Part shown: positions 2,306-23,523 of the stretch, one piece after another
How the letters are laid out: each line of letters starts with the position of its first letter
Position numbering within the stretch: the first letter of the stretch is position 1
Assembly (NCBI GenBank): GCA_963665295.1
Contig: OY762209.1
Coordinates: 2,272,001-2,336,000, forward strand
Length of the DNA stretch: 64,000 nt
Direction of reading: 5' to 3'
Origin: Syntrophorhabdaceae bacterium
GTDB lineage: Bacteria; Desulfobacterota; Syntrophorhabdia; Syntrophorhabdales; Syntrophorhabdaceae
Made by a program: the position numbers and the translations under genes
Notes under the pieces: generated by a model
Seen by the model: the letters and a program-made list of their open reading frames with translations, nothing else
Told to the model about the DNA's origin: nothing
The model's database searches: none

Positions 2306-2832
2306 GATCGTTCTTTCCTTCCCGCCCCCAAGAGTCTAAACTATTGGGTGGGAAGTGTCTCACTTATATTGGCACGGAGGGCGGAATACGATCTTCTCCG
2401 CCAGAAACCGGCATCAGTTTCACTGCAAAGGCGGAATGAAATATGGGAACAGGCCATGGGGGACATAAGGGAAATCGTTAGAGTTCGAGTCTCGCAACTG
2501 GTTGAGTGAAAGCAGCGCTGGGCGTCCTTTCTCATTTTGAACTGGTCATTCTGCCTGTCTTACCGTATAACGCTTCCTGCGCGAAAGCGGTAATTCCCAT
2601 CGGAAAGCAGTGTTGTCCTTTTTTCCTGAAAGCGATGAACGATCATTCTGAAGAGAGCGTTCTCCTCCATGTGGCGATCGGACACTGCCCGGTACCCCCA
2701 CCTTGGAATTTGCGATTGACAGTGGTAACCTATTCTGGTAACATCCGCTTAAGAACACGTTAGGCGATAGAAATAAGACGCAGCTTCGGTCAACAATGGA
2801 AGCCTGAGTTGAATAATGGTCAAGGCAGATGT

Positions 2833-3831
2833 ATGCGTTATTTCGGGTCAAAAGCATCTACGGTAGAGAAAGTTTATGAGCTTATCTCGCGCCGAGTACC
2901 GTCTGGATCATTCTGTGATCCATTTGGTGGCATTGGAGTGGTCGGGTCTTTCTTCAAGAACAAAGGCTACAGCGTCTGGACTGGTGATGCTCTGAGTTTT
3001 GCCTACTATTTCCAAATTGCGCGGATAGAAACCAACGTAATGCCACGCTTCGAGGGTGTCGTTAAAGCCCTGGCGCTGCGAACGCCCAGTGAAATAGCTG
3101 ACCGACTAAATTCCGCGAATCTCTCAGACGGATGGTTCGTGACTGAGTATGCAGAAAAACGACAATTTTTTACCAAAGACAACGCAAGACGCATATACGC
3201 GTGTATGACGTTAATACGTGATTGGGCTCAGGCTGGCAGCCTCAACAAAAAGGAGCATGCAATTCTATTGGCTTCGTTAATCGACAGCATCGATAGAGTC
3301 GCGAATACCGCGGGAACCTATTATGCGTATTTGAAGACGTGGCATGAAAAGGCACTGAGACCATTTCATTTTAGGTTACTTACTCATATCGTAGGGAATG
3401 AAGATTGTCACTGCTTTCTTGGAGATGCCAAGCGTCTTCTGAGCCAGCGGGCCTTTGACATAGTCTATCTTGATCCGCCATACAACGAGCGTTGTTATTC
3501 AAGATACTATCACCTACCAGAGGCAATAGCACGCGATGAGGTATCCGAGGCTCACGGGAAATCGGGAATCATGGAAGGAGAGAAACATGTTTCGGATTTC
3601 AACAAGCATTCGAAGGCTATGGATGCACTAAGGGAGACTCTCCGCAACGCCAGTTTTCGCCTTTTAGTATTTCATTACTCAGACGATGGCCTTATCAACC
3701 CAAGCGATATAAGAGGCATCCTTGGTTCCCGTGGAGAAATTGATGAGTATGTCATAGGTGGTAAAGGTTATACCACGAGACGCGGGCATAGGACTGTAAC
3801 CCACCGCCTTTACCTTGTCAGTAATGAGTAA
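2833..3831 (+). CDS. DNA adenine methyltransferase, D12/alpha class (FokI/NlaIII-like)
   Basis: N-terminal MRYFGSK, motif I FCDPFGGIGVVG, VANTAGTYYAYLK, motif IV VYLDPPYN...YSRYYH. ATG 2833 preferred over TTG 2809. Confidence 0.9.
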   Translation: MRYFGSKASTVEKVYELISRRVPSGSFCDPFGGIGVVGSFFKNKGYSVWTGDALSFAYYFQIARIETNVMPRFEGVVKALALRTPSEIADRLNSANLSDGWFVTEYAEKRQFFTKDNARRIYACMTLIRDWAQAGSLNKKEHAILLASLIDSIDRVANTAGTYYAYLKTWHEKALRPFHFRLLTHIVGNEDCHCFLGDAKRLLSQRAFDIVYLDPPYNERCYSRYYHLPEAIARDEVSEAHGKSGIMEGEKHVSDFNKHSKAMDALRETLRNASFRLLVFHYSDDGLINPSDIRGILGSRGEIDEYVIGGKGYTTRRGHRTVTHRLYLVSNE

Positions 3832-4765
3832 ATTTTTGCCCAGCTGGGACACGGATGATGTCAATACTTTGGTTGATTTCTCCAGGATTGAATTAATCGT
3901 GGCAGACTTAGATGGAACCTTGCTTTCTCCAGGTCAAATGGCGTTATACGAAACGATAAGGAGCCTTAACAGGAGTCTTGGATCCTATGGCGTTGCCTTA
4001 ACTCTGGCGACTGGCCGGAGCCTCTCTGGGGTGCATAACCTGCTCAGTACGCTATCGCTTCGGAAGGGCGTCCCTATAATCCTATATAATGGCAGTCTTG
4101 TGGTGAGGAACAAGACATTCGAAATATTGAGCCGAAAAACCATAGAAACTAACATCTTGCAGGCAATAGTTAATCTTTCCAGCGAATTGGGTGTGCCAGC
4201 GCTTGCGTACTTCTATACCGGCCCAACCAATCAACTGGCCTCATCATCTGATAACATCGAGTATGTGTTAGGCTGGGCAGAGGGAGGCCATGTTAGTCAT
4301 GAGTTTAATGGAATGCGGGTGGACTGGCAGGGTGGGCACAAAATCACCGAGAAAGCTAATCCTTCTGCCATACTGATTGACATTTCAACCAAAGGCGATT
4401 GTGCTCTTGCCATTCTGAGGCGCCTGCAAAAGGTCGTGGGTATTTCTGTTACTCATAGCGGCCAATCTTACCTGGAGATTAGGCCGGCGGATAGCAACAA
4501 AGGCGTGGCACTTGAAATGGCGGCGAGACTCTCTAGGATTGATCGATATAATATTCTGGCGATTGGGGACAACGATAATGATTTGGAAATGCTGAAGTGG
4601 GCTGGTATAGGGGTTGCCGTTGCTGGTTCTTCACCAAATGCTTTGCTCAGTGCAGATTATGTTAGCCGGCATGGGGTGATAGAAGGCGCAATAGAGGTTC
4701 TGCGTGTGGTAAGAAATGCACGACGATACTTCAGGCACATCGCAAAGGAGAGAAACAGTGAGTGA
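3824..4765 (+). CDS. Cof-type HAD-IIB phosphatase
   Basis: Motifs DLDGTLL, LATGR, ILYNG, YLEI...NKG, AIGDNDNDLEML. ATG overlaps the upstream stop (ATGAGTAA). Confidence 0.92.
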   Translation: MSKFLPSWDTDDVNTLVDFSRIELIVADLDGTLLSPGQMALYETIRSLNRSLGSYGVALTLATGRSLSGVHNLLSTLSLRKGVPIILYNGSLVVRNKTFEILSRKTIETNILQAIVNLSSELGVPALAYFYTGPTNQLASSSDNIEYVLGWAEGGHVSHEFNGMRVDWQGGHKITEKANPSAILIDISTKGDCALAILRRLQKVVGISVTHSGQSYLEIRPADSNKGVALEMAARLSRIDRYNILAIGDNDNDLEMLKWAGIGVAVAGSSPNALLSADYVSRHGVIEGAIEVLRVVRNARRYFRHIAKERNSE

Positions 4766-7322
4766 GATTGAACGCTGGGTTAAAGAACTGGAATCCTTCA
4801 AGGACAAATCCGAAAAATACTTCATGACGCAAGCAGAATTCGAAGCTGGATTAGATAGCGTTACTGGATTAGCCGATAGTCCGGTAGATGCCGTTCAGTA
4901 CCATATTGTCGGAAGTGCACCTTTTAACGCTATAGACATAGGTAGGCCAGGCACAGGGGATGCGATGTATGTCGATACAGTTACTATGGCTGATCCCCGC
5001 GGCTCGACATGCAAAACGTCGATTTGGACAAAACGAAATGCAGGAGTTGCGATTCATGCGTCCGCAGCCCTCGCTAAGGATTCTCTTGGCAAGCTAATAA
5101 AGGGGTATTGGAAGCCAGATCTGTTGGACAATAAAGCAAAATTACCTTCGCTCTTGATACCTAGGGCAACGCAAGTACTCGAAGATACAATACTGGACTT
5201 TGCAAAGACACGTGAAAGGACATTTCTTTTCTTTTGTGATCTAGACAAATTTAAATTGGTTAACGACACCTATGGAGAAAATGTGGGTGATCGTGTCATT
5301 TTGGAATTTGCATCAATTATCGAGAGAACTGTGATTCCCAATGCTGTAGCGCTTCACAGAAGCGGTGATGAGTTCATCGTATTTTGCCCCACAGACACTG
5401 TCGAAAGCGCGCTTTTTGTCGCCCACAAGATTATGAGAGAAGTGCGACAATACGACTTTCAAATCGGCAATTTGACAACAGATGTGTCCATTGGCATTAA
5501 AATAGTCGACCGTGAAACTCCTTGGAAGTCGTATAAGGATTTAGAGGATATGGCCGAAAAGGCATTGAAACCTAGCGGTCAAGGAAAGAGGCGTGGTATG
5601 GCCAGGTTTGCTGATGAGGTTGACCAAGTTGGCCTCCCGCTCACGAATGATTTATCTAAGTCGCTAGCCGTTTGTGTCGTGAAAAGCGGCATGGGCGCAG
5701 ATAACCCATTTGTGAGCCCTTGGCTGAACATGATATCGGAGCATGTGGAAATTTCAATCCAGGAAAGCTTCCCGAATATCTCCGGCATAAAAGAAGAGGT
5801 CGATACGATTGTAGACTGGATTAAGCCAAGTGTAGCAGTGGACACATTGCATGCAGGTACCCTTGGAAGCGAAGCGTCCTTGAAACCGTATTTTTCTCCA
5901 ATTGATATGGCGTTGGCAACAGCCCACGGAGTTTTTCGGGCGAGCCTGATGTCGGGCAATCAATCATTTAAAGACAAGAGCCTCAAGATATATTTTGATA
6001 GCAGTCAAGGCGCCTGTCAGTTGTGCCTGTGTCCGGATGGTGAAGTAATTATGCAATTTGGGACCGAGCCGTCCAGCTGGCCAGATACCATCGATTTAGG
6101 CGGATTTTTTCGGTCGTATGACGATAAACCCCGAAAAGCAATGGACTCTCGGGCAGCGCTTTTGGTGAAGATAGGGCATTCCAAGTTGGAATTGCCTGTC
6201 GCCATATTTGGAGAGATTATCGTTGTCGATGATCGTCCTACGCAGGGGGGCGGGTTGCCTGATTTTTGGGAAGCCACCATCGCCAGATTGGTTGCCCGCG
6301 TAGAATCCAATGCCAATATAATGGCGGTTTATATACTTGGAGAACATAAGTATGCCGCACAAACGATCGGACTGCTAAGAGATGTCGGGAACTGGGCTGA
6401 GAAAGCTGAGAGTATTGCGTCTAAGACGGGTATGTCCATTCATAGTATTTCTACCGCAGCCAGTCGTCTTAGCGGGAAGATTGTCTTTCCAGAAGACATT
6501 CGCCATCTATGCAATAATCTGATGAGCGTTCTTCTCGGTCGGCGTCTGCTTTATGATGTCATGTTGCCTGTTTTTTCGACAGAGAAATATCGAACCCTCC
6601 ACAGAGAACTGCTCATGGAAGGCATTGCCTTGTTAAGGGAGGACGGGTGTCGTGTGAAGACTATCGCGGAAGCATATCCCGTGGTCCTTGAAATCGCTCG
6701 CAAGGCGTCCCACAAGGCAAGGATCAAAGATCAAGCAGGGATGGAATTAAAAGAGCTTGTGGATTTCAAGGTTCTTCTGACCAACCCAAATCAGGATCTC
6801 GTCCCGTTGTTCTATCAGGAAGAGAAAGATTCTCTAGAGGGGTACTTCACGAGAGAATTTCAAACTGATACTGGTCTTTTCTTGAGTAAATTTAAAGAAG
6901 GAGGACAACTCGATGCGGTATTGACCCATCTTTCTACGCATATTCGTGACTTAAACCATCAGTTTGCCACTCGCAGGGGCATCTTGGTGGTTCCGCATGA
7001 TGTGGAAGAAGGGCATGACATTAGACCTCTGGGATTGATATCTATTCGTATTTTTCCAAGGTTTATGGATAACCGCGTACTCCTATATTACAGTTACACT
7101 TGGCGAACAGTAGAAGCCTTGGTTGGTTTCCCGTATAGCGTTTACGGATCAGTCAGGTTTAGTCAATACCTAACCGAAGAGGTTAAAAGGCGCTTACCCA
7201 GAGAACAGTCTAGACGGATTGAGATGGGGGAAGTGTCATACATAGCTCACAGTTTACATATATTCATGGATGATTATGGCGAAAACATTGCTCGCAGGAT
7301 TGTCGACGATGCCAGTCTCTGA
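4758..7322 (+). CDS. GGDEF (SGDEF) domain fused to a C-terminal thymidylate-synthase-like domain
   Basis: CDLDKFKLVNDTYGENVGD...RSGDEF at ~5230-5375. The C-terminus has KTIAEAY, KELVDFKV..TNP, TRRGILV, WRTVEALVGFPYS and GEVSYIAHSLHIF, in the motif order of the thymidylate synthase fold. GTG start with AGGAG, overlapping the HAD stop. Confidence 0.82.
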   Translation: MSEIERWVKELESFKDKSEKYFMTQAEFEAGLDSVTGLADSPVDAVQYHIVGSAPFNAIDIGRPGTGDAMYVDTVTMADPRGSTCKTSIWTKRNAGVAIHASAALAKDSLGKLIKGYWKPDLLDNKAKLPSLLIPRATQVLEDTILDFAKTRERTFLFFCDLDKFKLVNDTYGENVGDRVILEFASIIERTVIPNAVALHRSGDEFIVFCPTDTVESALFVAHKIMREVRQYDFQIGNLTTDVSIGIKIVDRETPWKSYKDLEDMAEKALKPSGQGKRRGMARFADEVDQVGLPLTNDLSKSLAVCVVKSGMGADNPFVSPWLNMISEHVEISIQESFPNISGIKEEVDTIVDWIKPSVAVDTLHAGTLGSEASLKPYFSPIDMALATAHGVFRASLMSGNQSFKDKSLKIYFDSSQGACQLCLCPDGEVIMQFGTEPSSWPDTIDLGGFFRSYDDKPRKAMDSRAALLVKIGHSKLELPVAIFGEIIVVDDRPTQGGGLPDFWEATIARLVARVESNANIMAVYILGEHKYAAQTIGLLRDVGNWAEKAESIASKTGMSIHSISTAASRLSGKIVFPEDIRHLCNNLMSVLLGRRLLYDVMLPVFSTEKYRTLHRELLMEGIALLREDGCRVKTIAEAYPVVLEIARKASHKARIKDQAGMELKELVDFKVLLTNPNQDLVPLFYQEEKDSLEGYFTREFQTDTGLFLSKFKEGGQLDAVLTHLSTHIRDLNHQFATRRGILVVPHDVEEGHDIRPLGLISIRIFPRFMDNRVLLYYSYTWRTVEALVGFPYSVYGSVRFSQYLTEEVKRRLPREQSRRIEMGEVSYIAHSLHIFMDDYGENIARRIVDDASL

Positions 7323-8085
7323 ATTTAGCACATGCATTCTGGTGTGCGATAGAGCGGATTTTGAGTTCTTCGTCTCAAATTCTCTATGTGATGATCGTCC
7401 CTCCGAAGCCAACGGATTATATCTGATTCCGGTTGCGACTGGAATAGAGGAGCTAGAGGCGATACTGAATGCCGTGCCGCAAAGACACGTTCGGCGTTAT
7501 TTGGACCGGTTTTACCTGTGGGGTCATGATAATTCCCCCGATGCTTGGCAACGGATGGTTGATAAATTTTTTGAGCTTATCGCTTATAAATATGAGATAT
7601 TTATTGACGTAGAGCGCAACAGGGAGAACATACGTAATCTATTGCGGTTCTTTCATCAGTTAAGCTACCGAACTCAGCGAGAAGAAATAATTGATTATGG
7701 ATGTGGGACGGGTCTCTCTTTGACGGTCGCAGATGGAGTGAAAAGTAAACTCATTGGGGTGGATAGAAGCCCAGCAATGCGCCATATTGCCCGCAGCAAG
7801 GGAATGACTGTCTGGAGTTTCCGCACGTTGGAGAGCAAGCCCCATAATTCTCTGGCGGGGGCCTTCGCGTCCTATGTTCTGCACCTGTCACCGAGTTTGG
7901 ATGGGATCGGTTTACTTTGGGACCGGATCGAAAAAGGAGGCGTCTTAGTTGCCAATTTCCATAAGAATCAGGGCGTAGAGTGGGTGACTGAGTATCTGCG
8001 ACGTAAGAGGTGTCTATTCGAGAACATTGAACCACCGATAGGTTCTGAGAGGCATGGAGTATACATCGCGTATGTTAAGTCGTAA
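7309..8085 (+). CDS. Class I SAM-dependent methyltransferase
   Basis: IIDYGCGTG motif I, GVDRSPAM, ASYVLH. ATG 7309 overlaps the upstream stop by 14 bp. Confidence 0.85.
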   Translation: MPVSEFSTCILVCDRADFEFFVSNSLCDDRPSEANGLYLIPVATGIEELEAILNAVPQRHVRRYLDRFYLWGHDNSPDAWQRMVDKFFELIAYKYEIFIDVERNRENIRNLLRFFHQLSYRTQREEIIDYGCGTGLSLTVADGVKSKLIGVDRSPAMRHIARSKGMTVWSFRTLESKPHNSLAGAFASYVLHLSPSLDGIGLLWDRIEKGGVLVANFHKNQGVEWVTEYLRRKRCLFENIEPPIGSERHGVYIAYVKS

Positions 8086-9895
8086 AGTGAAGCAGCCAGG
8101 CTTTGTCCAATTCGATAAGTATTCGGATTATTTTACAAACCGGTCCGAATTGGATATTGATTTCGCTAACGCTCGCATCCTAGCAGACATCGGGCTTCTG
8201 CCCCTCTATAAGGTTGGCGAGAAAGAAGTTGTCTTAGTGAATGACTTAGACTCTATTATTCCAATCCTTTCAAAAATGTCCCTATTATACGACACTTCAT
8301 TGTTTGCAGACAGTTTTCTAAGTAAAGGTGGGCCTCTGAAAATTTCTCCGCGCAAAGGTACCATGGTTGATATATTACCGATGAGCTCAAGAATGCAGAT
8401 TGATCCTGTCTTTTATGCGGCAGCTCGAAATCTCATGACCTTCATTTGTAAATTGGTCGATGACTCCGAGACTGAGAATACTACATCGCTTGATTATTTC
8501 CTTCCAGGGCGTGTATCAACGTCATCTGATCAAGTGAGACGCTATATTGAGAGACAGAAACGACGAGCGGACCTCACCTACTTATCACATGCAAGCCAGT
8601 TCGCAAATACGGCCTACTATATGGGGTCGAAGCGCATGTTAAGGGCGTTCCTGGTTGAGGCGATAGCGGAAGTGTTACCCGATGATGGCACGGTTGTCGA
8701 TTTGATGTGTGGCTCCGGTGCTGCTTCGGGAGCCTTCAATAAAGTCTGGAATACGATAGCCTCAGACGCTCAAGAATTTTGTACTACCCTAGCTCTCGTG
8801 CAGGGTGGTGGATTCTCGGCTGGCCAAGCGCAGAAATTGCTGGATCTAATTCTCCCAATCGCTCGTGACCATGCCAATATATTGCGAGGCAAGCTTCTTT
8901 ATTTTCTTCAGTGGGAGGACAGAATCCTTCACGGTGACACCGGGGCCAAATTGCTGTCGGAATACGAAAGATTTGTGATGTCCTTCCCGACCTATCCGCA
9001 CGGAACTGCTCATGGTGGATGGGACCCTCTGCAGGAAGTAGCTATGCGAAAGAAAGACATTCACCTCTACCCCTATTGTCTATTTGTCGCGTACTATGCA
9101 AATTTGTATTTTGGGTTGAGGCAGTCGGTGGAGATCGACAGTTTAAGATATGCACTAGACCAGGTAAAGGACGCGGTAGAAAAACAATGGGGAATGGGAG
9201 CTCTGATCGCGACGCTGAGTTCTTTGGGCACAACTTATGCTGGCCACTTTGCTCAACCTGTAGCAACTTCAACCAGACCTCTCAGTTTGCAGACGTTTTC
9301 AAAGATTTTAGAGATCAGAAGTTTTTCCATAATCCACGAGTTCAGCGTTAGGTTGCTTAGTCTGGCGGCTGAAAGTGAACGATCGAAAAATCCCATTGAG
9401 GTCATACCCGGGAGATGGTCAGACACCATGCCAGTCCTTGACAAAATTCTTGATAATCGCAAGAGAACCCTTGTCTACCTTGACGCGCCATATACCAGAG
9501 AGGAATACAGCCGTTATTATCATATTCTTGAGACCATTGTTTCTTATGGGTACCCTTCCTGTATAGGAGTGGGAAAAATTCCAGACAAACAGGCGAAGGA
9601 AAGGTTTCGTTCGGAGTTCTTTACAAAAGACAAAGCCAAGTTCGAGGCGGCTTTAGTCAAAATCATTGCAGAGGTCTTGAGCCGTGGCTGGATATGCGCT
9701 TGGAGTTATTCAGATTCTGGAAAAGCGAGCATCGTAACAGTTGTCGAGCAAGTACTGGGTAACGTGGACTGTCGCGCTCGGTCATTTTCGGTCCCTTATG
9801 AACATAAATCGCAAGGTGGTAAATCACCCAAGAAAGTGATCGAGTACCTCGTCATATTTCTGCCAGAGGAGACAAAAGGTTCGTTCGACATTTGA
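8072..9895 (+). CDS. Second D12-class DNA adenine methyltransferase with N-terminal extension (DAPY motif)
   Basis: YMGSKR, VVDLMCGSG, GHFAQP, VYLDAPY...YSRYYHILET, FRSEF. ATG 8072 with GGAG overlaps the upstream stop. Confidence 0.85.
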   Translation: MLSRKVKQPGFVQFDKYSDYFTNRSELDIDFANARILADIGLLPLYKVGEKEVVLVNDLDSIIPILSKMSLLYDTSLFADSFLSKGGPLKISPRKGTMVDILPMSSRMQIDPVFYAAARNLMTFICKLVDDSETENTTSLDYFLPGRVSTSSDQVRRYIERQKRRADLTYLSHASQFANTAYYMGSKRMLRAFLVEAIAEVLPDDGTVVDLMCGSGAASGAFNKVWNTIASDAQEFCTTLALVQGGGFSAGQAQKLLDLILPIARDHANILRGKLLYFLQWEDRILHGDTGAKLLSEYERFVMSFPTYPHGTAHGGWDPLQEVAMRKKDIHLYPYCLFVAYYANLYFGLRQSVEIDSLRYALDQVKDAVEKQWGMGALIATLSSLGTTYAGHFAQPVATSTRPLSLQTFSKILEIRSFSIIHEFSVRLLSLAAESERSKNPIEVIPGRWSDTMPVLDKILDNRKRTLVYLDAPYTREEYSRYYHILETIVSYGYPSCIGVGKIPDKQAKERFRSEFFTKDKAKFEAALVKIIAEVLSRGWICAWSYSDSGKASIVTVVEQVLGNVDCRARSFSVPYEHKSQGGKSPKKVIEYLVIFLPEETKGSFDI

Positions 9896-10123: not shown

Positions 10124-11865
10124 CCTGACTTCCCGCCCTATTGTAACGAGGCCGGCCCCCTTACCTCCAGCCTCGCATAAAGTTCCATCTGTTTCTTCGT
10201 CATCTCCCCCACCATGAGACGCTGCCCCGGCACTTCGTAACATTCGATGACATCAAGCTCATCCAGGACTTCCTGCAGCGTGTAATCTTTGAAGAGGTTG
10301 CTCTCCTGCATCTTCCTGGTGATGTGAGATAAGAAGATAAGGGCGATGAACTGGACAAAGAGCTTGCCGTCGAGACTCTGCTCGGAGGAGACGGCAAGCC
10401 TGCGTACGTTCAGCCGTTCCTTCAGGTTCTCGAAGGCCTTCTCCACCAGGTCCTTGTTCCGGTAGATGGTAAGCGCTTCAAGGGGGTCTTTTATTTCGTT
10501 GCTTAGGAGGGCAAAGTATCCGTAATTGCGTTTCGCCTCTATGAGAACCTCTTCTTTGGCAACCACTTTTGTCCCCCGGACCGGCGTACTCTTCACCTCG
10601 AAGTATTTCGCATAGTATTTCTCATGATCCGGATAGCGAGTACCGCGTTCCAGTTCTTCCTGCCAATCAGAGAGACGGGTAGTGAAGGCCAGCTCATCCT
10701 CTAAGGCTCTCTCCGGAGAGAAATACAGATGAAGATACATCCGGCGGTCCTCCGCGAGGGTGTCTCCTTTGTGGGGCCGATCCTGTACATAGTCCCAGGT
10801 GATCGGCAAAGAATAGGCATAGAGCCCATAGGTCTTACTGTAATGGGTGAAGCTCCGCATCTTCTCCCGGACGGGGTCAAGGTGCCTCTCCACGAACGTA
10901 AGGGGCAGCCGTGCGGCAATGAGGAACTTCATATGATGTTTATACAGGTCGTTGATATTGGCCGCACTGTAGAAACCCCGGTCCAGGACCACCTTGATCT
11001 TTTCATAACCCAGGGCGTTCATGTCGCTGAGCAATCTCCTCAATGTCTTCACATCGGGGATGTTGCCCGGGAGCTTCCGGTAATAGAAGGGCAGGCGTGA
11101 CTGCTGTCCGAAGAGGAGTGCAAGGTTGATCTGGGGAAGGTGCTCATGGTCCTTGTTCTTCCCGTAGCGTACCTGCCGCAGGCACTGGGAGTAACTGGAG
11201 ATGGAGGTGCTGTCATAGGCGAGATATTCCTTCTCTACCCGGCGCTTCCCCTGAAGGGTAAAGAACCGCTGTCTTCCTTCCTCGGTGATCGCGGCAAAGA
11301 GGTCGCTACTCCTCTGGGAGGAGATGACCTCCCCATGTGGATGCCAATGAACGTGAGCCCACCGGGGGAAGCGGCTCAAGGGGTTCTTGTCCTCCAATAT
11401 GAGGTAATAGGCGAGGGAGAGGATCTTACGATAGCTATCGGGGAAACAGGTCCTCAAATCCTTTGTCACCCCTATCTCTTCCCCGATACGGTCGAAGAGG
11501 TAGGTGGCCCCATAAAACAACCGGGCAGTCCGGGTGATGGGCACCGGGCCAGGCTTGATCGTCTTTGGCTCCACCTTCTTTTTCCTGGTGGGGATGATTT
11601 CCCCAGTCTCTTCGTCTACCCTTCCGATGCACACACGCTTTGCCCTGGACTGCTTCCTCTCCTTATCCCAGAATGAGACCGATTCATAGGCATACCTGAC
11701 CCCGGTCTTCTTATTGGTCTGATAGACGATCGCCATGCATTCCCTCCTTCATCGTTACAACACTATAACTTGTAACGATGACAAATGCAAGGGGAATCAC
11801 ACCTAATTCTATGTTTATTAATGGGTTAGATGTGTTTCCTCGTTATAATTGCGCGGGAAGTCGGG
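10124..11865 (-). mobile_element. IS1634-family insertion sequence
   Basis: Inverted repeats CCTGACTTCCCGC (10124) and GCGGGAAGTCGGG (ends 11865). The flanks (TTATAG / TAATTA) are not duplicated. Confidence 0.88.
10138..11736 (-). CDS. IS1634-family transposase
   Basis: YAYES..WD...KQSR N-terminus; AYDSTSISSYS, LPQINL, GNIPDVKT, LDRGFYS, YRNKDLVEKAFENLK. Confidence 0.92.
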   Translation of the reverse strand: MAIVYQTNKKTGVRYAYESVSFWDKERKQSRAKRVCIGRVDEETGEIIPTRKKKVEPKTIKPGPVPITRTARLFYGATYLFDRIGEEIGVTKDLRTCFPDSYRKILSLAYYLILEDKNPLSRFPRWAHVHWHPHGEVISSQRSSDLFAAITEEGRQRFFTLQGKRRVEKEYLAYDSTSISSYSQCLRQVRYGKNKDHEHLPQINLALLFGQQSRLPFYYRKLPGNIPDVKTLRRLLSDMNALGYEKIKVVLDRGFYSAANINDLYKHHMKFLIAARLPLTFVERHLDPVREKMRSFTHYSKTYGLYAYSLPITWDYVQDRPHKGDTLAEDRRMYLHLYFSPERALEDELAFTTRLSDWQEELERGTRYPDHEKYYAKYFEVKSTPVRGTKVVAKEEVLIEAKRNYGYFALLSNEIKDPLEALTIYRNKDLVEKAFENLKERLNVRRLAVSSEQSLDGKLFVQFIALIFLSHITRKMQESNLFKDYTLQEVLDELDVIECYEVPGQRLMVGEMTKKQMELYARLEVRGPASLQ

Positions 11866-12466
11866 TAATTACTGAGCCGAAAGTAGCGATGGGGTTTTGT
11901 TGCATATCTTCATAACGAACAATATGAATGGGAATCAGCGCTTGTTCCTGCCAGCTTTTTACATGGCTCTTCCACGAAAGTAGTTTTTGGCGAAGTTGTC
12001 CTTCTCTTTTGCCGGCAACCTGTGCTTCTTCATTTATTAATAAGTTTAAAGTCGGATCAATCTTGCCGGCCCTGTGGTTGGCATATGATACGCAAACATC
12101 CATTGGATTGCGTACAAAATAAACAGCACATCTGGAAATTTCTTCCGGGAAAAGGGGTTCACCTGTGGCATTCACAGTGTAAGCATCATGTGTTTTTTTG
12201 TAACTTGTTTCTCCTGCGATTTCTGCTTTATGCGATAAGATCCGATACATATCGGGCCGGTAAAAATCGACCTCTTCGGGTGTAAGTTCGAATGGATTCA
12301 GCCCAATTACATCTTCGAAATCAATGGCATTGCCCGAAAGAGGAGTCGATTCAATCTCTTCTAATGATATCGGATCCGGCTTGTTCTTCAGGTAGTTGGC
12401 CAAGAACATTCGGAACCAGGTATTTCCGGATTTGGGGTAGGATACCAGCCAAACAATGTTCTTCAT
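11866..12466 (-). pseudogene. Sulfotransferase (Sulfotransfer_1-like), 3'-truncated by IS1634
   Basis: 5'-PSB loop SYPKSGNTW, KTHD, VRNPMDVCVS, RYEDM. The frame runs into the IS end and lacks the C-terminal PAPS-binding FRKG region. Confidence 0.85.
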
Positions 12467-13296
12467 TGGTCGATCTCTTTTTTAATGCATTTCATGGTTT
12501 CGTAAATATCACAAGAAGCAGGGCGGAAAATTTGGGTGACACGAACGTTACCTGCCAATTTAATTAATTGTTTGAAGTAGGTTTTTTCTGTTTCGGGCAT
12601 TCCCTTTAAGTACATTCTCCGGTAAATCTGACTGCGTAATGCATTGTACTTAAACATCCCGCTGATTTTATTCACTTCGAATGTATCTTTATTGTGTTTG
12701 CAAAGGATGAACAGATGATCTAAGTGAAGTTCAGCCGAAGAAGATTCCTGAATCGGGAGATAGAATTTATTGATGGAAGGTCTGATCATTTCAAGATTAT
12801 TATTCGTAATCTTCAATTTTAGGAGAGAATCGTCCCATAACTTCATTTTGGTTTTTATCGGAATGATAGCGGTTACTGGCCCGTTCATCCGAACAGGTGT
12901 GACATCATCGTTAATAAAACACCCGCCGTTCTGACAGAAAGCAGCCGTTACTGATGATTTACCGGAGCCGGAGTACCCGCAGATTAAGATGCCTTTCCCA
13001 TCGTATTCAAATGAGCAACCGTGGAAAGGCAAAATACCTTGCTGATGCAGTACAGCACCCAATATTGGGCCATTCAGAAAAAGTTTGATGGAAGCCATAT
13101 CTGCGTTTTCATGCGGATGAATAGACACATGATTCCCATCTCTCACGCGAAAGCTCGCGACATGATCAATATTCATTATAAAGTCACTCTCATCTACCTG
13201 AAGATGTGGAAAAGATAAACGTGCATTTGAGAGATTGCCTACTTCTTCACGAGAAAAATTGAGATACTCCAGGGCGACAGGAAAACTAAAATCCAT
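12463..13296 (-). CDS. HPr-kinase-like P-loop kinase (PadeK-type lasso peptide kinase)
   Basis: LPFHG, Walker A GYSGSGKS, INDDV. Lies between a lasso-like precursor and a sulfotransferase. Confidence 0.8.
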   Translation of the reverse strand: MDFSFPVALEYLNFSREEVGNLSNARLSFPHLQVDESDFIMNIDHVASFRVRDGNHVSIHPHENADMASIKLFLNGPILGAVLHQQGILPFHGCSFEYDGKGILICGYSGSGKSSVTAAFCQNGGCFINDDVTPVRMNGPVTAIIPIKTKMKLWDDSLLKLKITNNNLEMIRPSINKFYLPIQESSSAELHLDHLFILCKHNKDTFEVNKISGMFKYNALRSQIYRRMYLKGMPETEKTYFKQLIKLAGNVRVTQIFRPASCDIYETMKCIKKEIDQ

Positions 13297-13563
13297 AAAT
13301 GTACTTTTTTAGGAAGAATAGAAGGTAGAGGAGGTTTTTTAATAGTTTCTCCCGGTAGAATCTTTTGCGCATTTGCAAAATCCGTTCAACCTCGAACACC
13401 AAATCCGGAAAACCTCGAACACCTGATCCGGTGATATCCGAACAGTGAATCCGGAAAACCTCGAACACTTTTTCTCACTCACCGGATTCGGTGTTCGAGT
13501 AAAACGGATTTGTTACCCTCCCTGCCCGACATGATAGACTGCGCCCAAAAACGGAGGGCGCGG

Positions 13564-15111
13564 TTGAAGAAACAGGGGAGGAAATTATCCATGAAGAAAC
13601 TGAAGGAAGTTGCACGGCTGTATCTGGAACTGGGCCTGGGAGTGCGCCCTATCGCCCGGGCATGCAACATCTCCGCGTCCACCGCCTCGGTCTATGTGGA
13701 GAGACTCAAGGGCCTCGGAGCCACGTATGGGCAAATATGTGAGATGGACGAAGACGTTCTCTCAGGACTCCTTTTCCCCAAAGAGGAGAGGGCAACAAAG
13801 GCGCTGCCCGATTTTGACTATCTCACGACGGAACTCAAGAAAAAGAAGGTAACCCTCCAGATCCTTTACGAAGAGTACCGCCAGAACAATCCGGAGGGAT
13901 ATGAGCGGACCCAGTTCTACCACCTCTACCATGAGTGGGCCAAAAGGGCGGACCCCGTGATGCGTCTCACTCATAAGGCGGGAGAGAAGATGTTCGTCGA
14001 CTTCTCCGGAGACAAGGCCCACTACCAGGACGGCGCCACCGGCAAGACGGTTGAAGTCGAGCTCTTCGTCTCCGCACTCGGAGCAAGCTCCTATATATTC
14101 GCCCGGGCTGTTAAGGATCAGACAAAGGAGAGCTTCGTGGAATGCAACGTGAGGGCGCTCAATTACTACGGAGGCTCCCCCGAGTGCATCGTGCCTGACA
14201 ACTTGAAGGCCGGCGTGACCGATGCGTGTTACTATGATCCCGAGATCAACAAGACCTTCGCCGCCATGGCGGAACACTATCATATTGCGGTGCTGCCCAC
14301 GAGAAAGGGGAAAGCGAAGGACAAGGCCAAGGTGGAGAACGCCGTGCTCCAGGCCCAGAGGAGAATCTTGGCGGTACTGAGAAACCGGACGCTCTTCAGT
14401 ATCGGAGAGCTCAATGGCGCCATCCAGGAAGAAACGGAGAAGCTCAACAGAAGACCCATGGCGGTGATAGGCAAGTCCCGGTATGACCTCTTTGTGGAGA
14501 TAGAGAAGCCCGCACTAAAGCCGCTACCGGAAGAACGGTTCGTGATCGCGTCATGGCTTAACGCCACGGTCCATATCGACTACCATGTCGCGGTGGAGAA
14601 GACCTATTACAGCGTGCCCTACACCTTGATCGGCCATGAACTGGATGTGAGGTATACCTCCTCCGTGGTGGAAGTCTACGACCGCGGCAAAAGAGTCGCC
14701 TCTCATATGAGAATCAATAAGGCAGGCGCCTTCGTGACGGAGAACCTCCATATGCCCCGCGAGCACCGGCAATATCTTGAGTGGACGCCCGAGCGCATCA
14801 AGAAATGGGGAGCAAAGATCGGCCCCCATACAAAAGAGTTTATGGACGAGGTCATGGCGCACCGGGACCATCCCGAACAAGGCTTCCGAAGCTGCCTTGG
14901 TATTATCCGCTTATCAAAGACATATTCTCCGGAGCGGGTAGAGAAGGCATGCAAAAGAGCCCTGGAGCTTCAGGCGTATAATTACCGGAGCGTCAAATCT
15001 CTCCTTGAAAAGAATCTCGAGAATCTCACTCCGGCAGAAAGAAAGAACATCGTCCCCCTCCATGACAACATCCGGGGAAAAGACTATTACGGCGAGGTGA
15101 CCCATGATTGA
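13564..15111 (+). CDS. istA: IS21-family transposase IstA
   Basis: N-terminal HTH; MFVDFSG, IVPDNLKAGV, KDKAKVENAV. TTG start with GGAGG inferred. Confidence 0.93.
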   Translation: MKKQGRKLSMKKLKEVARLYLELGLGVRPIARACNISASTASVYVERLKGLGATYGQICEMDEDVLSGLLFPKEERATKALPDFDYLTTELKKKKVTLQILYEEYRQNNPEGYERTQFYHLYHEWAKRADPVMRLTHKAGEKMFVDFSGDKAHYQDGATGKTVEVELFVSALGASSYIFARAVKDQTKESFVECNVRALNYYGGSPECIVPDNLKAGVTDACYYDPEINKTFAAMAEHYHIAVLPTRKGKAKDKAKVENAVLQAQRRILAVLRNRTLFSIGELNGAIQEETEKLNRRPMAVIGKSRYDLFVEIEKPALKPLPEERFVIASWLNATVHIDYHVAVEKTYYSVPYTLIGHELDVRYTSSVVEVYDRGKRVASHMRINKAGAFVTENLHMPREHRQYLEWTPERIKKWGAKIGPHTKEFMDEVMAHRDHPEQGFRSCLGIIRLSKTYSPERVEKACKRALELQAYNYRSVKSLLEKNLENLTPAERKNIVPLHDNIRGKDYYGEVTHD

Positions 15112-15862
15112 GGCGATGATCGAGAAGATGCTCCTCATGAGGCTCTTTGGCATGGCGGAGGGGGTGAAAGAGCAGATGTGTGACGCCTACCGTGACCTCG
15201 GCTTCGAGGAGCGATTGGGGATCCTGATCGACAAGGAAAAGCTCTACCGGCAGAACAGCCAGATCAAGAGCCTTCTGTCTCAGGCTCACCTGCGTCACCC
15301 CAACGCCTGCGTTGAGGACATCGACTTCCGGACGAGACGGGGCCTGAGTAAAGAGGCGATGCTCAGGTTCTCCCAGAACGACTGGATAAGGAACTACCAG
15401 AATATTATCGTCATCGGGCCTACCGGTGCGGGGAAGACGTTCCTTGCCTGCGCGTTGGGGAATAGCGCTATACGGCAGGGGATACGGACCCTCTATGTAA
15501 GACTGCCCAGGTTCGTGCAGGACCTTAGGATCGCGAGGGCGGACGGGAGTTATGCGAGGCTCCTTGAACGGATACAGCGGATGAAGCTCCTCATCATCGA
15601 CGACTGGGGAATAAACCCCTTTGCAGACGGGGAGCGGAGGGACATCCTGGAGATCATGGAGGACCGGCACGGGGCCCGCTCCACCATCATCACCACCCAG
15701 TTCCCCATCGACACTTGGCACGACATCATCGGAGACCCGACCCTGGCGGACGCCATATGCGACCGGGTCATCCATAACGCTCACAAGATCATCCTGAAGA
15801 CAGGAGAGGAATCCATGCGGAAAATACATTCGACCTTGACGGAAGGTCGAACACTTTTATAA
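15104..15862 (+). CDS. istB: IS21 helper AAA+ ATPase IstB
   Basis: Walker A GPTGAGKT, Walker B LLIIDDWG, ADAICDRVIHNA. Confidence 0.95.
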   Translation: MIEAMIEKMLLMRLFGMAEGVKEQMCDAYRDLGFEERLGILIDKEKLYRQNSQIKSLLSQAHLRHPNACVEDIDFRTRRGLSKEAMLRFSQNDWIRNYQNIIVIGPTGAGKTFLACALGNSAIRQGIRTLYVRLPRFVQDLRIARADGSYARLLERIQRMKLLIIDDWGINPFADGERRDILEIMEDRHGARSTIITTQFPIDTWHDIIGDPTLADAICDRVIHNAHKIILKTGEESMRKIHSTLTEGRTLL

Positions 15863-16712: not shown

Positions 16713-16895
16713 GTCGTCCCCTATGAATGCTTGGCTCAACAATAATCGATGCGCTGTTACGTCGGACATCTTTATGACAAAAATTCTTTGACTATTTCGG
16801 TCCATAGTGTCAGAATTGAACCATCCAGAGAACATATTGGTTCAGCAGAGCTTGCGCGGAAAGTTGTCCGTATATTATACGCTGGGAAGGGCAAA

Positions 16896-18899
16896 ATGAA
16901 GATCAAATCCATGAGAATCAGGAATTTTAAGACTTTTGATGAAGAAGGAATTTTGTTAAGTCTGAAGGATTTGACAGCCTTGGTCGGCGAAAACAGCACG
17001 GGAAAATCAAATGTTCTGGAAGCTCTAGATTTGTTTTTCAATTTTAGTACGTCAAAGATTTCAAGAGAGTCGTTTCATCATGATGATTCCACCAGAGAGA
17101 TTTCAACTGAAGTCAAGTTTGGAATGCTTACTGATATTGAGAAGGAAAAGTTCAAGATTCATCTTAACGAAAAAGAGGAGCTGGAAATAAAGCAGATAAT
17201 AAGATTGAGTTCTGTGGAGGAGGACGAAGAGGATCTGAAGCCAAAGTACCAAGAGAGTAAGCATGGGACCAGATGGGAAGCAGAATCAGAGTGGGCTCGG
17301 TTAGGCCCAAAGCCTCCCACCAAGAACAATATCAAGACTTGGTGGAAGCAGGATCTAAAAATAGGCAATTTTGATTTCAAGAGTCTCTTCGAAAAACAGG
17401 ATGGCGATATTGAACCGCTCGTTTATCAGGTTAAGCTGGAGCAGTTGTGGAATGAACACTTTGACGATATCCCGAAGGAAAAGAGAACCGGAGATGAAAA
17501 AGTTCTTGGGTGGAAAAACAAACTTAAGGGAAATCTACCAAAATATTTCTACATACCGGCAATAAAGGACGTGAACGACGACCTGAAAGTATTAAAGACT
17601 AATCCGTTTGGCGAAATAGTGAGCTGGCTTACTCAGAACATCACGGCAGATATAGAGAGGGATTTCAAAGAAAAGACCGAGCAAATCTTTATGGAGGTGA
17701 TGGGCGCTGTAGACAAAGACAATGAGGGCAAATCAAAGATCGCCTTCTTGAATGAGAAGTTGAATGCTAATCTTGGGGTGAACATTGACTGTAAACTCGA
17801 GTTGAAATTCGGGACTCCGCAGATATCCGATGTAATCTTCCCTTCTCCTCAGCTATATGCCGACGACGGGTATTATTCAATGATCGATCTAAAAGGGAAT
17901 GGCCTGCAAAGGTTATGCGTCATTTCACTACTTCGAACATATAATGACGTAAAGAAGCGGGTGGAGGATGTTGACAGAAACGTCGTAATAGCGATTGAGG
18001 AGCCGGAAATCTATCTGCACCCCCCAATCAAAAGAGCCACCTACAAGCTTTTACGTTCGTTGTCAGAGCAGAGTGATCAGATAATCTATTCGACTCACGA
18101 TAGCTATTTCGTTTCTGTTGAACATTTCGATGAAATCAGATTATTCAACAAAGTCAAAGAAGGAAAACCTGTAACAAAAATCTATGAATTCGGAATAGAG
18201 AAACTGACAAAGTATTATGCCGATCATTACGGGATTAATGTCGATGAAAAAAGTCTGAGGCATCGATTCGCTCATATCTGTGACGAAACGAAAAACGAGG
18301 GTTTTTTTGCAAACAAAGTGGTTTTAATAGAGGGTGAAACCGAAAAATACGCATTGCCTATCTATTTTGATCGTGTTGGATTTGATGTGGACAGCGAAAG
18401 GGTGGCGATAATATCCGCCGGGTCCGTGGACAACATCAGTTACCTCTATCTTATTTTTAATGAATTTCATATCCCTTGCTATGTAATTTTTGATGGCGAT
18501 AAACCCAGCATCGACTATGAGGAATTAAAGAAAAAGGAACGAGAGAAAGAACGACAGGCTATTTTGGGGAAAAGCCGAAGAAACAAGGAGTTGCTGGCAT
18601 TTGTCGGCGAGACCGTTGATAAGGAAGCGAAATTTCTTTTTCCTGTAACTGCCGTAAAAGATACGTACGCTGTTTGGGAGCAAGATTTTGAGCATACATT
18701 TCATAGGCCTGTCGACGTGTATGAGAAAATCAAGGGGGAAGCGACCAATCTCTATGGAACAAAAAGTAAACCCTTGGCGGGAAGACATTTCGCTTCAGAG
18801 CTAGTCGAGAAATATCCGGACAGAATTAGTCCTCATATAAATGAATTGGTCCAAATGATAAGGTCATGCAATTGGAAGAAGTCATGTCTTTTGGAATAG
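16896..18899 (+). CDS. OLD-family ATP-dependent nuclease (ABC ATPase + TOPRIM)
   Basis: MKIKSMRIRNFK start, Walker A GENSTGKS, GNGLQR signature, IAIEEPEIYLHP, STH; TOPRIM VLIEGETE and FDGD. Confidence 0.9.
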   Translation: MKIKSMRIRNFKTFDEEGILLSLKDLTALVGENSTGKSNVLEALDLFFNFSTSKISRESFHHDDSTREISTEVKFGMLTDIEKEKFKIHLNEKEELEIKQIIRLSSVEEDEEDLKPKYQESKHGTRWEAESEWARLGPKPPTKNNIKTWWKQDLKIGNFDFKSLFEKQDGDIEPLVYQVKLEQLWNEHFDDIPKEKRTGDEKVLGWKNKLKGNLPKYFYIPAIKDVNDDLKVLKTNPFGEIVSWLTQNITADIERDFKEKTEQIFMEVMGAVDKDNEGKSKIAFLNEKLNANLGVNIDCKLELKFGTPQISDVIFPSPQLYADDGYYSMIDLKGNGLQRLCVISLLRTYNDVKKRVEDVDRNVVIAIEEPEIYLHPPIKRATYKLLRSLSEQSDQIIYSTHDSYFVSVEHFDEIRLFNKVKEGKPVTKIYEFGIEKLTKYYADHYGINVDEKSLRHRFAHICDETKNEGFFANKVVLIEGETEKYALPIYFDRVGFDVDSERVAIISAGSVDNISYLYLIFNEFHIPCYVIFDGDKPSIDYEELKKKEREKERQAILGKSRRNKELLAFVGETVDKEAKFLFPVTAVKDTYAVWEQDFEHTFHRPVDVYEKIKGEATNLYGTKSKPLAGRHFASELVEKYPDRISPHINELVQMIRSCNWKKSCLLE

Positions 18900-23097: not shown

Positions 23098-23372
23098 TCG
23101 CTCTCCTGTTTCAGTATCTCCCAGTTGATCTTAGAAAGCTTCTGTATGAGAAGCCACATCATCTTGTACCGCTTCGTCATCTCCTTCGCCTTCTCGGCAA
23201 TCTGTTTTCTCACATACACGGTTACGGTCTTCCCCTTCACTTTTGTGGTAAGGGAGTGGCCCGTCATGGAAGGGGACTTGGCCACCGTCCCGATAAGGAA
23301 GAAATCCAGCTGTGCGACAATGTCCTCCTTAAGTCTCTCCCGCTGCCTTTTAAGAAGATCGATTTGTTCCAT
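23094..23372 (-). CDS. Small IS66-associated basic protein (DUF6788-like), copy 1
   Basis: 92-aa ORF inside the IS. Its stop overlaps the transposase GTG start. Conserved in both copies. Confidence 0.7.
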   Translation of the reverse strand: MEQIDLLKRQRERLKEDIVAQLDFFLIGTVAKSPSMTGHSLTTKVKGKTVTVYVRKQIAEKAKEMTKRYKMMWLLIQKLSKINWEILKQESE

Positions 23373-23523
23373 TGAACCCTCCACATGAGTAGTAGTACTT
23401 CTATTATAATACCATCATGGAACAAGGGAATCAAAGGTGTTGTGCAAATTAGACATAATATTTTGCTGGAAAAAGTTCCGAGAGGACTAAACTGTTACGG
23501 ACGACGTAACAGTTTAGTCCCCC

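Follow-up and report, generated by a model that had tools for sequence, protein, structure and literature searches.

Why would a bacterium keep two adenine DNA methyltransferases in one operon with a phosphatase, a small-molecule methyltransferase and a nucleotide cyclase joined to a thymidylate synthase fold? The locus that raises this question lies in a 64,000-nucleotide stretch of contig OY762209.1 (positions 2,272,001 to 2,336,000, forward strand; assembly GCA_963665295.1) from a Syntrophorhabdaceae bacterium; we call this whole stretch the window and number positions within it. Open reading frame (ORF) calling and domain searches place five co-oriented, overlapping genes at window positions 2833-9895: MT1, a DNA methyltransferase (MTase) of the D12/Dam family; HAD, a phosphatase; GGTS, a label coined in this analysis for a protein of 854 amino acids (aa) that combines a GGDEF cyclase domain with a thymidylate synthase (TS) fold; a class I S-adenosylmethionine (SAM) MTase; and MT2, a long and divergent Dam-like MTase. 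These five genes form, with hardly any room for doubt, a real conserved cassette, and our preferred reading, to which we give slightly less than an even chance, is that this mobile cassette defends against phages or mobile elements by tying adenine methylation to signalling through a nucleotide second messenger.

The loci retrieved by scans with the family alignment came from genomes (19), metagenomes (74, giving 93 together) and a viral contig (1). When the five window proteins were compared by tblastn with the 93 genome and metagenome loci, the order MT1-HAD-GGTS-SAM-MT2 was found to recur repeatedly. MT1 and HAD are present in 49 of the 49 loci that have at least 2.2 kb of sequence upstream of GGTS, and the SAM MTase and MT2 in 46 of the 48 that have at least 2.8 kb downstream; the two exceptions are a locus without the SAM MTase gene (L001) and another in which only a GGTS remnant is found (L018). 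All five genes are matched in 44 of the 93 loci, comprising 35 with the canonical order and strand, 2 that are rearranged (L039 and L086, with MT1-HAD inverted and placed downstream) and 7 that are cut by contig ends. When the five proteins are compared pairwise across 20 complete, non-redundant loci, their identities rise and fall together (Spearman 0.63-0.85, against a maximum of 0.41 in 300 permutations, with the caveat that kinship inflates such correlations), a pattern of divergence that fits transfer as one block.

Gene fusions tie several members of the cassette together. The SAM MTase and MT2 are encoded by a single ORF of 805-853 aa in six loci (L009, L051, L057, L071, L076 and L092), and among the best 120 of 428 MT2 homologues, 11 are HAD::MT2 fusions of 761-935 aa with an N-terminal Hydrolase_3 domain. 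These fusions suggest that the HAD, the SAM MTase and MT2 may act as one enzyme complex, whose substrate might be DNA, free nucleotides or the product of the cyclase. The original prediction, made from the DNA sequence alone, had taken the operon for a dedicated module; the conserved five-gene synteny, the co-varying divergence and the fusions bear this out, with homologues that co-occur in the same order in many phyla. From the window alone, coincidence in an island rich in insertion sequences (IS) could be proposed for the adjacency of these genes; the synteny counts, correlated divergence and fusions refute it and leave it practically no probability. The HAD::MT2 fusion proteins in our collection are P0281, P0303, P0305, P0307, P0311, P0312, P0314, P0315, P0319, P0321 and P0329; looking for them among plasmids brought up the Bradyrhizobium record alone, and among viral sequences nothing.

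Few genomes carry the cassette, which is an accessory element that has spread horizontally. A word-indexed search of 5.8 billion proteins returned only 18 full-length GGTS relatives, while an exhaustive profile search of 1.84 billion representatives yielded a family of 286 proteins at E<=1e-3 (228 at E<=1e-30), of which all 150 listed are similar in length to GGTS or are shorter pieces. Judged by record titles, the hosts include Bryobacteraceae and Vicinamibacterales (Acidobacteriota), Armatimonadota, Prolixibacteraceae, Bacteroidales, several Clostridia, Solirubrobacteraceae (Actinomycetota), Brocadiaceae, another member of the Planctomycetota and a Methanoregulaceae archaeon, a span of at least six bacterial phyla plus the archaeon. 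Only 1 of 401 sampled genomes of the host's phylum carries the cassette, and that genome is the host itself. One copy (L116) resides on a mobilizable plasmid of Bradyrhizobium japonicum USDA 123 (pUSDA123-1, 346652-355584), where the PGAP annotation goes no further than a DNA adenine methylase, a HAD-IIB hydrolase, a GGDEF protein and a methyltransferase; it is decayed, with an IS1380 transposase interrupting the GGTS gene and MT2 annotated as two genes. Another locus, on a prophage-like contig and the single one recovered among 2.9 million viral contigs, adjoins phage head, adaptor, tail and lysis genes, and 50,697 phage records gave no cassette match. In the window, the GC content of the cassette is 0.45-0.48, compared with 0.51-0.56 on either side. 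The patchy spread over phyla, the count of 1 in 401 genomes, the plasmid, the prophage-like contig, the IS flanks and the low GC content thus mark the cassette as rare and mobile.

At the centre of the cassette is GGTS (window 4758-7322, plus strand), which is composed of an N-terminal region, the GGDEF domain, a helical/beta linker, an MtrA-like Rossmann domain and a TS-fold domain devoid of a catalytic cysteine. The GGDEF cyclase domain (residues 141-290, window 5178-5627, plus strand; motif HRSGDEF) matches the Pfam GGDEF family PF00990 with 67.8 bits against a cut-off of 23.8 (E 1.2e-18), as do all 18 members of our alignment A1, and a profile search aligns it over the whole core with solved cyclases (best 6d9m, 2.8e-25; DosC, 5e-25). 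Across 61 sequences D161, D163, N169 and D204 are invariant, with G203 kept in 60 and E205 in 59; by analogy with PleD, we take the residues of this core to serve as the metal-binding aspartates, the acidic pair of GG(D/E)EF and the base-binding asparagine. The motif mostly reads SGDEF, its first glycine being a serine in 34 of the 61 sequences. At the selectivity position, the equivalent of PleD D344, the same sequences have Asp (42), Asn (9), Ser (6), Thr (3) or Gly (1), and this position aligns with the serine of the Hypr enzyme 6d9m. In Hypr GGDEFs, a Ser or Thr here permits the use of ATP and the synthesis of 3',3'-cGAMP (PMC9140294).

The C-terminal part of GGTS was modelled with AlphaFold2 (residues 296-854, from 52 sequences), giving a predicted local distance difference test score (pLDDT) of 90 and a predicted template modelling score (pTM) of 0.88. 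At residues 626-854 (window 6633-7322, plus strand) the model has a TS fold. In VIA structure comparison its best match is 9iqc_A (Z 18.7, root-mean-square deviation 2.5, 197 aligned residues), a riboflavin-dependent monooxygenase solved with dCMP and FAD, followed by MilA (Z 16.8), ThyA (Z 14.2) and T4 dCMP hydroxymethylase (Z 14.1); Foldseek agrees on the fold with a best E of 3.6e-8. Sequence methods see the domain less readily: TIGR03283, the methanogen-type thymidylate synthase family, matches the C-terminus at 8.8e-7 and 28.6 bits, below its cut-off of 174.55, PF00303 gives no match to GGTS in the Pfam scan (its match in the host-genome search fell at another locus), and a profile search of PDB sequences with GGTS found no TS. 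Likewise, hhalign of the GGTS profile to Escherichia coli ThyA alone aligned nothing useful, while hhalign to an alignment of short-form TS plus E. coli ThyA gave an E of 5e-4 over 119 columns.

The latter alignment maps T738-R739-R740 to the R126/R127 region of ThyA, R783 to R166, E786 to D169, S794 to N177 and H834 to H207, and in the 61-sequence alignment R739, R740, R783, E786, S794 and H834 are invariant or nearly so. The catalytic cysteine of ThyA (E. coli Cys146) aligns to a proline, no conserved cysteine occurs anywhere in the TS-fold domain of the 61 sequences, and at nearby position 762 most have Ser (52), a few Ala (4) or Cys (3). Phage 5-hydroxy-dCMP synthases retain Cys146 (PMC13326640). 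GGTS 451-854 is predicted to form a homodimer, with an ipSAE of 0.79 against 0.00 for the best of three controls, a mark that 20 of 30 proteins solved as same-chain pairs reach and 1 of 23 solved as single chains; since TS dimers are themselves solved structures, this pass may reflect likeness to them. The dimer runs agree in at least 90% of contacts with a partner pLDDT of at least 78, and the predicted interface lies in the TS-fold domain, where R739 and R740 contact R783, T784 and S832 of the partner; this reach into the partner corresponds to the composite phosphate site of real TS dimers. A domain that has lost its cysteine and kept a composite phosphate-binding site would act as a receptor, and we tentatively suggest that the TS-fold domain is a nucleotide receptor, a role to which we give roughly a one-in-three chance.

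Apart from GGTS, thymidylate synthases were seen in relatives of the host: most of those sampled from its order (loci L095-L112) encode a short protein of about 235 aa that retains the PC(L/H) cysteine and matches PF00303 over about 105-235 only. The host's own best PF00303 match is weaker (27.8 bits, G000:C1:2975350-2975589).

Between the linker and the TS fold lies the Rossmann domain (residues 451-601, window 6108-6560, plus strand), marked by an invariant DDRPxxGGxLPDFW loop at residues 491-504. Its best structural match in VIA is MtrA (5laa_B, Z 8.6, root-mean-square deviation 3.3, 130 aligned residues), with a weak local sequence match to 5laa (E 1.3). A search of the ESM Atlas with GGTS 296-625 gave no usable match, and the MtrA family PF04208 has a single chance-level match in the host genome (E 0.2), elsewhere. 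The position aligned to His84 of MtrA, which we presume to be its cobalt ligand, is occupied by Ala in the window protein, and no residue holds a majority there in the consensus of 52 sequences. We considered corrinoid-dependent methyl transfer by this domain and, given the Z of 8.6 and the loss of the presumed ligand histidine, keep it as a lead only.

Of the other four proteins, MT1 (332 aa, window 2833-3831, plus strand) is a D12/Dam-family N6-adenine DNA MTase that matches PF02086 (1.3e-20; 74.6 bits against a cut-off of 22) and the PADLOC MTase_II model PDLC03287 (4e-60), and its motifs MRYxGSK, CDPFGGIG and LDPPY are conserved in a 45-sequence alignment (A7), so that all Dam motifs are kept. 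HAD (313 aa, window 3824-4765, plus strand) is a Cof-type HAD-IIB phosphatase, with matches to PF08282 (Hydrolase_3, 1.9e-40), TIGR01484 (HAD-IIB, 86.8 bits against 41.8) and, just under the cut-off, TIGR00099 (Cof, 134.9 against 137). Its four catalytic motifs are intact; in a 51-sequence alignment (A8) the invariant residues are D31, D33 and G34, T66, G67 and R68, K229, and G251, D252, N255 and D256, numbered on a 316-aa reading that starts at 3815. The SAM MTase (258 aa, window 7309-8085, plus strand) appears to be of the small-molecule type, with weak Pfam matches to Methyltransf_23/25/11, the motif LDFGCGTG and profile matches to PDB entries, the best at 3.6e-10, that are class I MTases of generic type. 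MT2 (607 aa, range 607-613; window 8072-9895, plus strand) aligns to PF02086 in the motif IV region only (residues 467-497, 31.6 bits); its motif I is DLMCGSG and its motif IV is DAPY rather than DPPY (alignment A2). A profile search of PDB sequences with MT2 found nothing. The AlphaFold2 model of MT2 (pLDDT 86) has a class I MTase core, for which T4 Dam (Z 13.5, 221 aligned) and E. coli Dam (Z 12.4, 229 aligned) give the longest alignments in VIA, tied in score with many other MTases.

As to the layout of the operon, whose ORFs run from 2809/2833 to 9895, start codons at 3824 (ATG), 4758 (GTG), 7309 (ATG) and 8072 (ATG) produce junction overlaps of 8, 8, 14 and 14 bp; the GTG at 4758 is preceded by AAGGAG and yields a protein 100% identical to an 854-aa database entry. 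A promoter-like site (TTGACA-17-TAACAT, TG-extended; window 2716-2744, plus strand) lies about 90 bp 5' of MT1 by consensus scan alone, and 19 such sites in the region compared with 11.6 +/- 3.9 in shuffled sequence is weak evidence. The original prediction had described these five co-oriented genes and the same four overlaps, in AT-richer, IS-bounded DNA near OLD and REase-STAND genes, and the ORFs, start codons, GC profile and Pfam matches of the flanks agree with it. Structure comparison confirms that the C-terminus of GGTS is TS-like, as it had proposed; regarding gene content, its domain assignments stand, while it had missed that GGTS contains an MtrA-like Rossmann domain, that the TS nucleophile is lost and that relatives have accessory genes.

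Among those accessory genes, two families recur when the ORFs of the flanks are clustered, patatins and dUTPases. Of the 41 loci with 1 kb or more of upstream sequence, 13 encode a patatin-like phospholipase immediately before MT1 and on its strand, at a spacing of -14 to +30 bp and once of 242 bp, and the four patatins tested match the PADLOC CBASS phospholipase effector model PDLC00758 over the full length of the model (1e-87 to 1e-94); CBASS stands for cyclic-oligonucleotide-based anti-phage signalling system. A two-transmembrane (2TM) SLATT protein is adjacent in two loci, matching CBASS 2TM effector models in L003 and DRT-associated SLATT models in L034. The selectivity position of the cyclase is Ser or Thr in 8 of the 11 patatin-linked cyclases, compared with 1 of the 50 others. 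In Vibrio cholerae, cGAMP activates CapV. We view the CapV-like and SLATT proteins as what look like add-on effectors in some lineages. Other neighbours bear on nucleotides: 11 loci have a dUTPase gene next to the cassette, and small P-loop kinase-like genes occur 3' of MT2 in L029 and L063, fused to MT2 in L066 and upstream in L086. Integrases, resolvases, TniB/TniQ and toxin-antitoxin genes are found near many loci by Pfam, and the flanks contain PADLOC matches to SoFic, AbiEi, HmaC, Lit, PbeA-like proteins and other MTases, along with generic and transposon matches. Overall, the defence and mobile-element context of the loci is moderate, not overwhelming.

Several relatives have further genes beside the cassette. 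Known defence genes adjoin it in three loci: a full-length HmaC that begins with a HEPN domain in L071 (15125-18439), a Lit-like U49 peptidase in L076 (15548-16993) and AbiEi in L054 (8240-9016). The Bryobacteraceae copies (L013, 4758-7897; also L050, L052 and L081) have an MT-A70-type methylase of 195 aa and an 826-aa protein without a Pfam or PADLOC match, both encoded immediately 5' of MT1 and on its strand. In L015 (5090-5425), about 1.5 kb upstream of the patatin, there is an XRE-type helix-turn-helix (HTH) protein with a match to the capH model (6.7e-11) that may be generic; CapH is a CBASS transcriptional regulator.

These observations make a conflict or defence role for the cassette probable, and we put cyclase-to-effector signalling at about an even chance. 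The mechanism is only partly inferable; under the preferred reading of an immune system, it might run as follows. MT1 and MT2 would methylate host DNA, as their family membership suggests. A GGTS homodimer, held together by the TS-fold domain as the fold, its residues and the predicted dimer indicate, would bind a deoxynucleoside monophosphate or a similar ligand, possibly one that appears or changes during infection. Binding would switch on the paired GGDEF domains, whose catalytic residues are conserved, to make a cyclic dinucleotide, with the MtrA-like Rossmann domain perhaps helping the TS-fold receptor to control the two cyclase domains. In relatives the messenger would then activate an effector, either the CapV-like patatin phospholipase or the SLATT 2TM protein. 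For the bare five-gene form, our best guess at the effector is the SAM MTase, MT2 and HAD, which the gene fusions tie together and which might act on nucleotides or DNA. The original prediction had offered a model with self-marking by the MTases, sensing of a pyrimidine dNMP by the TS-like domain and a signal made by the GGDEF domain; it gains indirect support from the retained arginines and missing cysteine of the TS fold, from the intact GGDEF core and from the CBASS-type effectors next to the cassette in some relatives. A bolder version, which we regard as doubtful, would make the cassette a new immune class in which Dam-like enzymes place a private mark on the chromosome and the TS-fold/GGDEF protein reads a modified or abnormal deoxynucleoside monophosphate that phage attack leaves behind, to raise a cyclic-dinucleotide alarm, possibly tailored further by a SAM-MTase/MT2/HAD complex so as to be orthogonal to housekeeping cyclic di-GMP.

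A number of observations weigh against the immune reading. The window contains no remnant of a patatin, SLATT, dUTPase or kinase gene (tblastn, nothing better than E 0.06), and neither the window nor about half of the loci with flanking sequence have a recognisable effector. The window cyclase has Asp, the GTP-type residue, at the selectivity position, and the association of Ser/Thr with patatins rests on one or two clades, so that few independent events stand behind it. Of the 18 GGDEF matches in the host genome, 14 are strong and ordinary, and a plain cyclic di-GMP alarm would cross-talk with housekeeping signalling; the GGDEF domain of GGTS scores 72 bits compared with 120-183 for the host's own cyclases and is thus much more divergent. 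Defence genes in the flanks of relatives are of limited weight, in that 16 of 121 other flank ORFs match a PADLOC model at E<=1e-10, about half of these matches being generic and the count having no background control. TS pockets normally hold pyrimidines and D12 MTases make N6-methyladenine, so a ligand derived from the methylome is speculative. The immune reading also leaves the MtrA-like domain, the SAM MTase and the HAD unexplained, and a nucleotide-synthesis pathway would account no less well for the dUTPase and P-loop kinase-like neighbours.

Such a pathway is the main rival. In this explanation, which we hold to be unlikely, the cassette makes an unusual (deoxy)nucleotide, be it a hypermodified base for DNA or a nucleotide analogue that is toxic or acts as a decoy. 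A non-canonical enzyme activity would then reside in the TS fold, with the MtrA-like domain handling its cofactor; the SAM MTase and HAD would elaborate what it makes, precursors would come from the dUTPase and kinase-like neighbours, and the substrate of the two Dam-like enzymes would be either that product or DNA. Catalytic motifs are kept in every enzyme but the TS fold, the HAD and the SAM MTase are each fused to MT2 somewhere in the family, as the kinase-like gene is once, and the nearest folds to the TS domain (9iqc, MilA and T4 dCMP hydroxymethylase) are nucleotide C5-modifying enzymes, all of which, along with the 11 adjacent dUTPases and the kinase-like genes near MT2 or upstream, speaks for a modification pathway. 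However, a conserved cysteine nucleophile of the kind that phage 5-hydroxy-dCMP synthases retain is missing, as is conservation at the presumed cobalt-ligand position of the MtrA-like domain; the intact GGDEF cyclase and the neighbouring CapV-like and SLATT effectors would have no role; and the cassette is near-absent from viruses (the 1 viral contig in 2.9 million and none of the phage records noted above), where base-modification pathways are common.

Two other explanations remain to be weighed. The cassette could be a non-immune, mobile epigenetic and cyclic di-GMP regulatory module in which the MTases establish patterns of methylation and GGTS reports nucleotide or one-carbon status to the host network, and the GTP-type Asp of the window cyclase, the full cyclic di-GMP network of the host and the links of the TS and MtrA folds to folate and one-carbon chemistry are in keeping with this. 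We judge it improbable: the distribution is extremely patchy, the carriers comprise an island bounded by IS elements, a plasmid and a prophage-like contig, 13 loci have a CBASS-type effector attached, and the cassette also occurs in a Methanoregulaceae archaeon and in Bacteroidota, lineages in which cyclic di-GMP signalling is reported to be rare (PMC13725321). The remaining explanation, Type IIS-like restriction-modification with a nuclease hidden, for example, in the N-terminal region of MT2 (about 170 residues) or of GGTS (about 140 residues), seems very unlikely. These two regions matched no assigned domain in whole-protein searches, which leaves a place for a nuclease, and two D12/Dam-family MTases in one operon are the pattern of Type IIS systems. 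The original prediction had recognised no endonuclease, and this holds: Pfam, NCBIfam, PADLOC and PHROGs find no nuclease family in the five proteins, with the N-terminal regions not searched separately, each structural match listed for MT2 is a class I methyltransferase or a related SAM-binding fold and none is a nuclease, and flank clustering reveals no conserved nuclease gene, the patatin and dUTPase families being the only ones that recur in at least five loci. Restriction-modification would also leave three conserved enzymes unexplained.

Comparison with known systems helps to place the cassette among them. It resembles CBASS, and in particular DncV-CapV of V. cholerae, which we take to be a CBASS with a CapV-type phospholipase effector, in that the cyclase gene of relatives shares an operon with a CapV-family patatin in 13 loci or lies next to a SLATT gene in L003 and L034, and in its patchy, mobile distribution. 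It differs in having a GGDEF cyclase, with a putative TS-fold sensor, in place of a CD-NTase (PADLOC finds no CD-NTase, or SMODS, model match in the five proteins), in the four further enzymes that are obligatory in the cassette (the two DNA MTases, the HAD and the SAM MTase), and in the window copy, which is without a CapV-like or SLATT effector. With the diguanylate cyclases and Hypr-GGDEFs PleD, GacA and Bd0367, GGTS shares the full GGDEF catalytic core and a selectivity position with the same variation, Asp or Ser/Thr, that distinguishes canonical from Hypr enzymes. In contrast to them, no RxxD I-site is visible in the sequence upstream of the GGTS motif, the first glycine of the motif is mostly serine, and the putative sensor part, made up of the MtrA-like and TS-fold domains, is C-terminal. 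With Type IIS systems the cassette has in common the two Dam-family MTases, MT1 being canonical with its DPPY, whereas no endonuclease was found, MT2 carries DAPY together with a long insert and an extended N-terminus, and three other, equally conserved enzymes sit between the MTases.

The nucleotide-modifying enzymes with a TS fold, namely ThyA, T4 dCMP hydroxymethylase, MilA and the phage 5-hydroxy-dCMP synthases, share with GGTS the fold itself (Z 14-18.7), the arginines aligned with ThyA R126/R127/R166, the predicted dimer and His207. They are set apart by the catalytic Cys that GGTS is without, by the replacement of ThyA D169 with Glu and N177 with Ser, and by the fusion of the GGTS domain behind a cyclase and a Rossmann domain; the PF00303 model does not pick up this gene. 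A functional parallel may be PUA-Calcineurin-CE-HAD, which is reported to sense Dam-derived m6-dAMP and to drain dNTPs with a HAD phosphatase, its sensors often being linked to N6A methylases without restriction enzymes (10.64898/2026.01.15.699771). The likeness lies in the logic of sensing a modified deoxynucleoside monophosphate, the HAD partner and the N6-adenine methylases, and the difference in a PUA-like sensor and C1-cap HAD there and a putative TS-like sensor, Cof/IIB HAD and cyclase here. We found no match to a signature Pfam of that system, and no Calcineurin-CE domain, in the five cassette proteins; its precedent makes a ligand from nucleotide fallout conceivable for GGTS. The signatures of BREX, DISARM, Dnd, Dpd and MADS (PglZ, DrmA/B, DndA-E, DpdA and Mad proteins) are absent from the operon genes by PADLOC, apart from marginal mad2 matches (E 7e-4 and 9e-3) that cover the region of the SAM-binding motif. 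That the operon belongs to no named system, as originally predicted, is thus upheld, PADLOC-DB 2.0 recognising generic MTase models only. The architecture is undescribed: neither the GGDEF/TS-fold fusion nor the five-gene operon was found in the literature searched, which was thin on subscription journals, so that a prior description is possible.

The surroundings of the cassette in the window are rich in mobile elements. On its 5' side is an IS3-type element on the minus strand (913-2305), consisting of an rve integrase ORF (913-1911, Pfam rve 2.9e-19) and an HTH_Tnp_1 ORF (1883-2305, 4.9e-6); on its 3' side are a minus-strand DDE_Tnp_1 (IS4-like) transposase (10138-11736, PF01609 1e-12) and, further along the downstream flank, IS21 istA/istB (13510-15862). 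The same IS-rich island encodes an OLD-family nuclease of 716 aa with AAA_15 and an OLD-like TOPRIM domain (16749-18899) and, 3' of it, a second defence-type gene, for an Mrr_cat-nSTAND3 protein of 753 aa (19157-21418). Between the IS elements, an islet with a GC content of 0.41 (11843-13296) contains a sulfotransferase gene (207 aa) overlapping that of a P-loop protein (277 aa) with a weak HPr-kinase-like match, and appears unrelated to the cassette. Beyond the island genes, two minus-strand ORFs of 506 aa with GTG starts lie about 1.9 kb apart in 21577-25044; that at 21577-23097 is an IS66-family transposase by Pfam, and the second, of equal length, is at 23524-25044. A RecD2-type helicase gene follows this pair at 25986-28211.

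Should the cassette prove to serve defence, it would join methylation-based self-marking, as in restriction-modification and BREX, with second-messenger alarms of the kind used by CBASS, Pycsar, Thoeris and type III CRISPR, and a classic bacterial GGDEF cyclase would be the generator of an immune signal. GGDEF enzymes would in that case add another independent family of immune cyclases to the CD-NTases and Cas10/mCpol, and the cysteine-less TS fold would be a new kind of nucleotide receptor, with a bearing on how phage-altered deoxynucleotide pools are sensed. The system is compact (five genes in 7 kb), the catalytic motifs of its enzyme genes are kept, and natural variants with and without the CapV-like protein exist, which makes these ideas open to direct tests in laboratory hosts. 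If the cassette is instead a nucleotide-modification pathway, it would represent new chemistry on a TS scaffold without a cysteine nucleophile.

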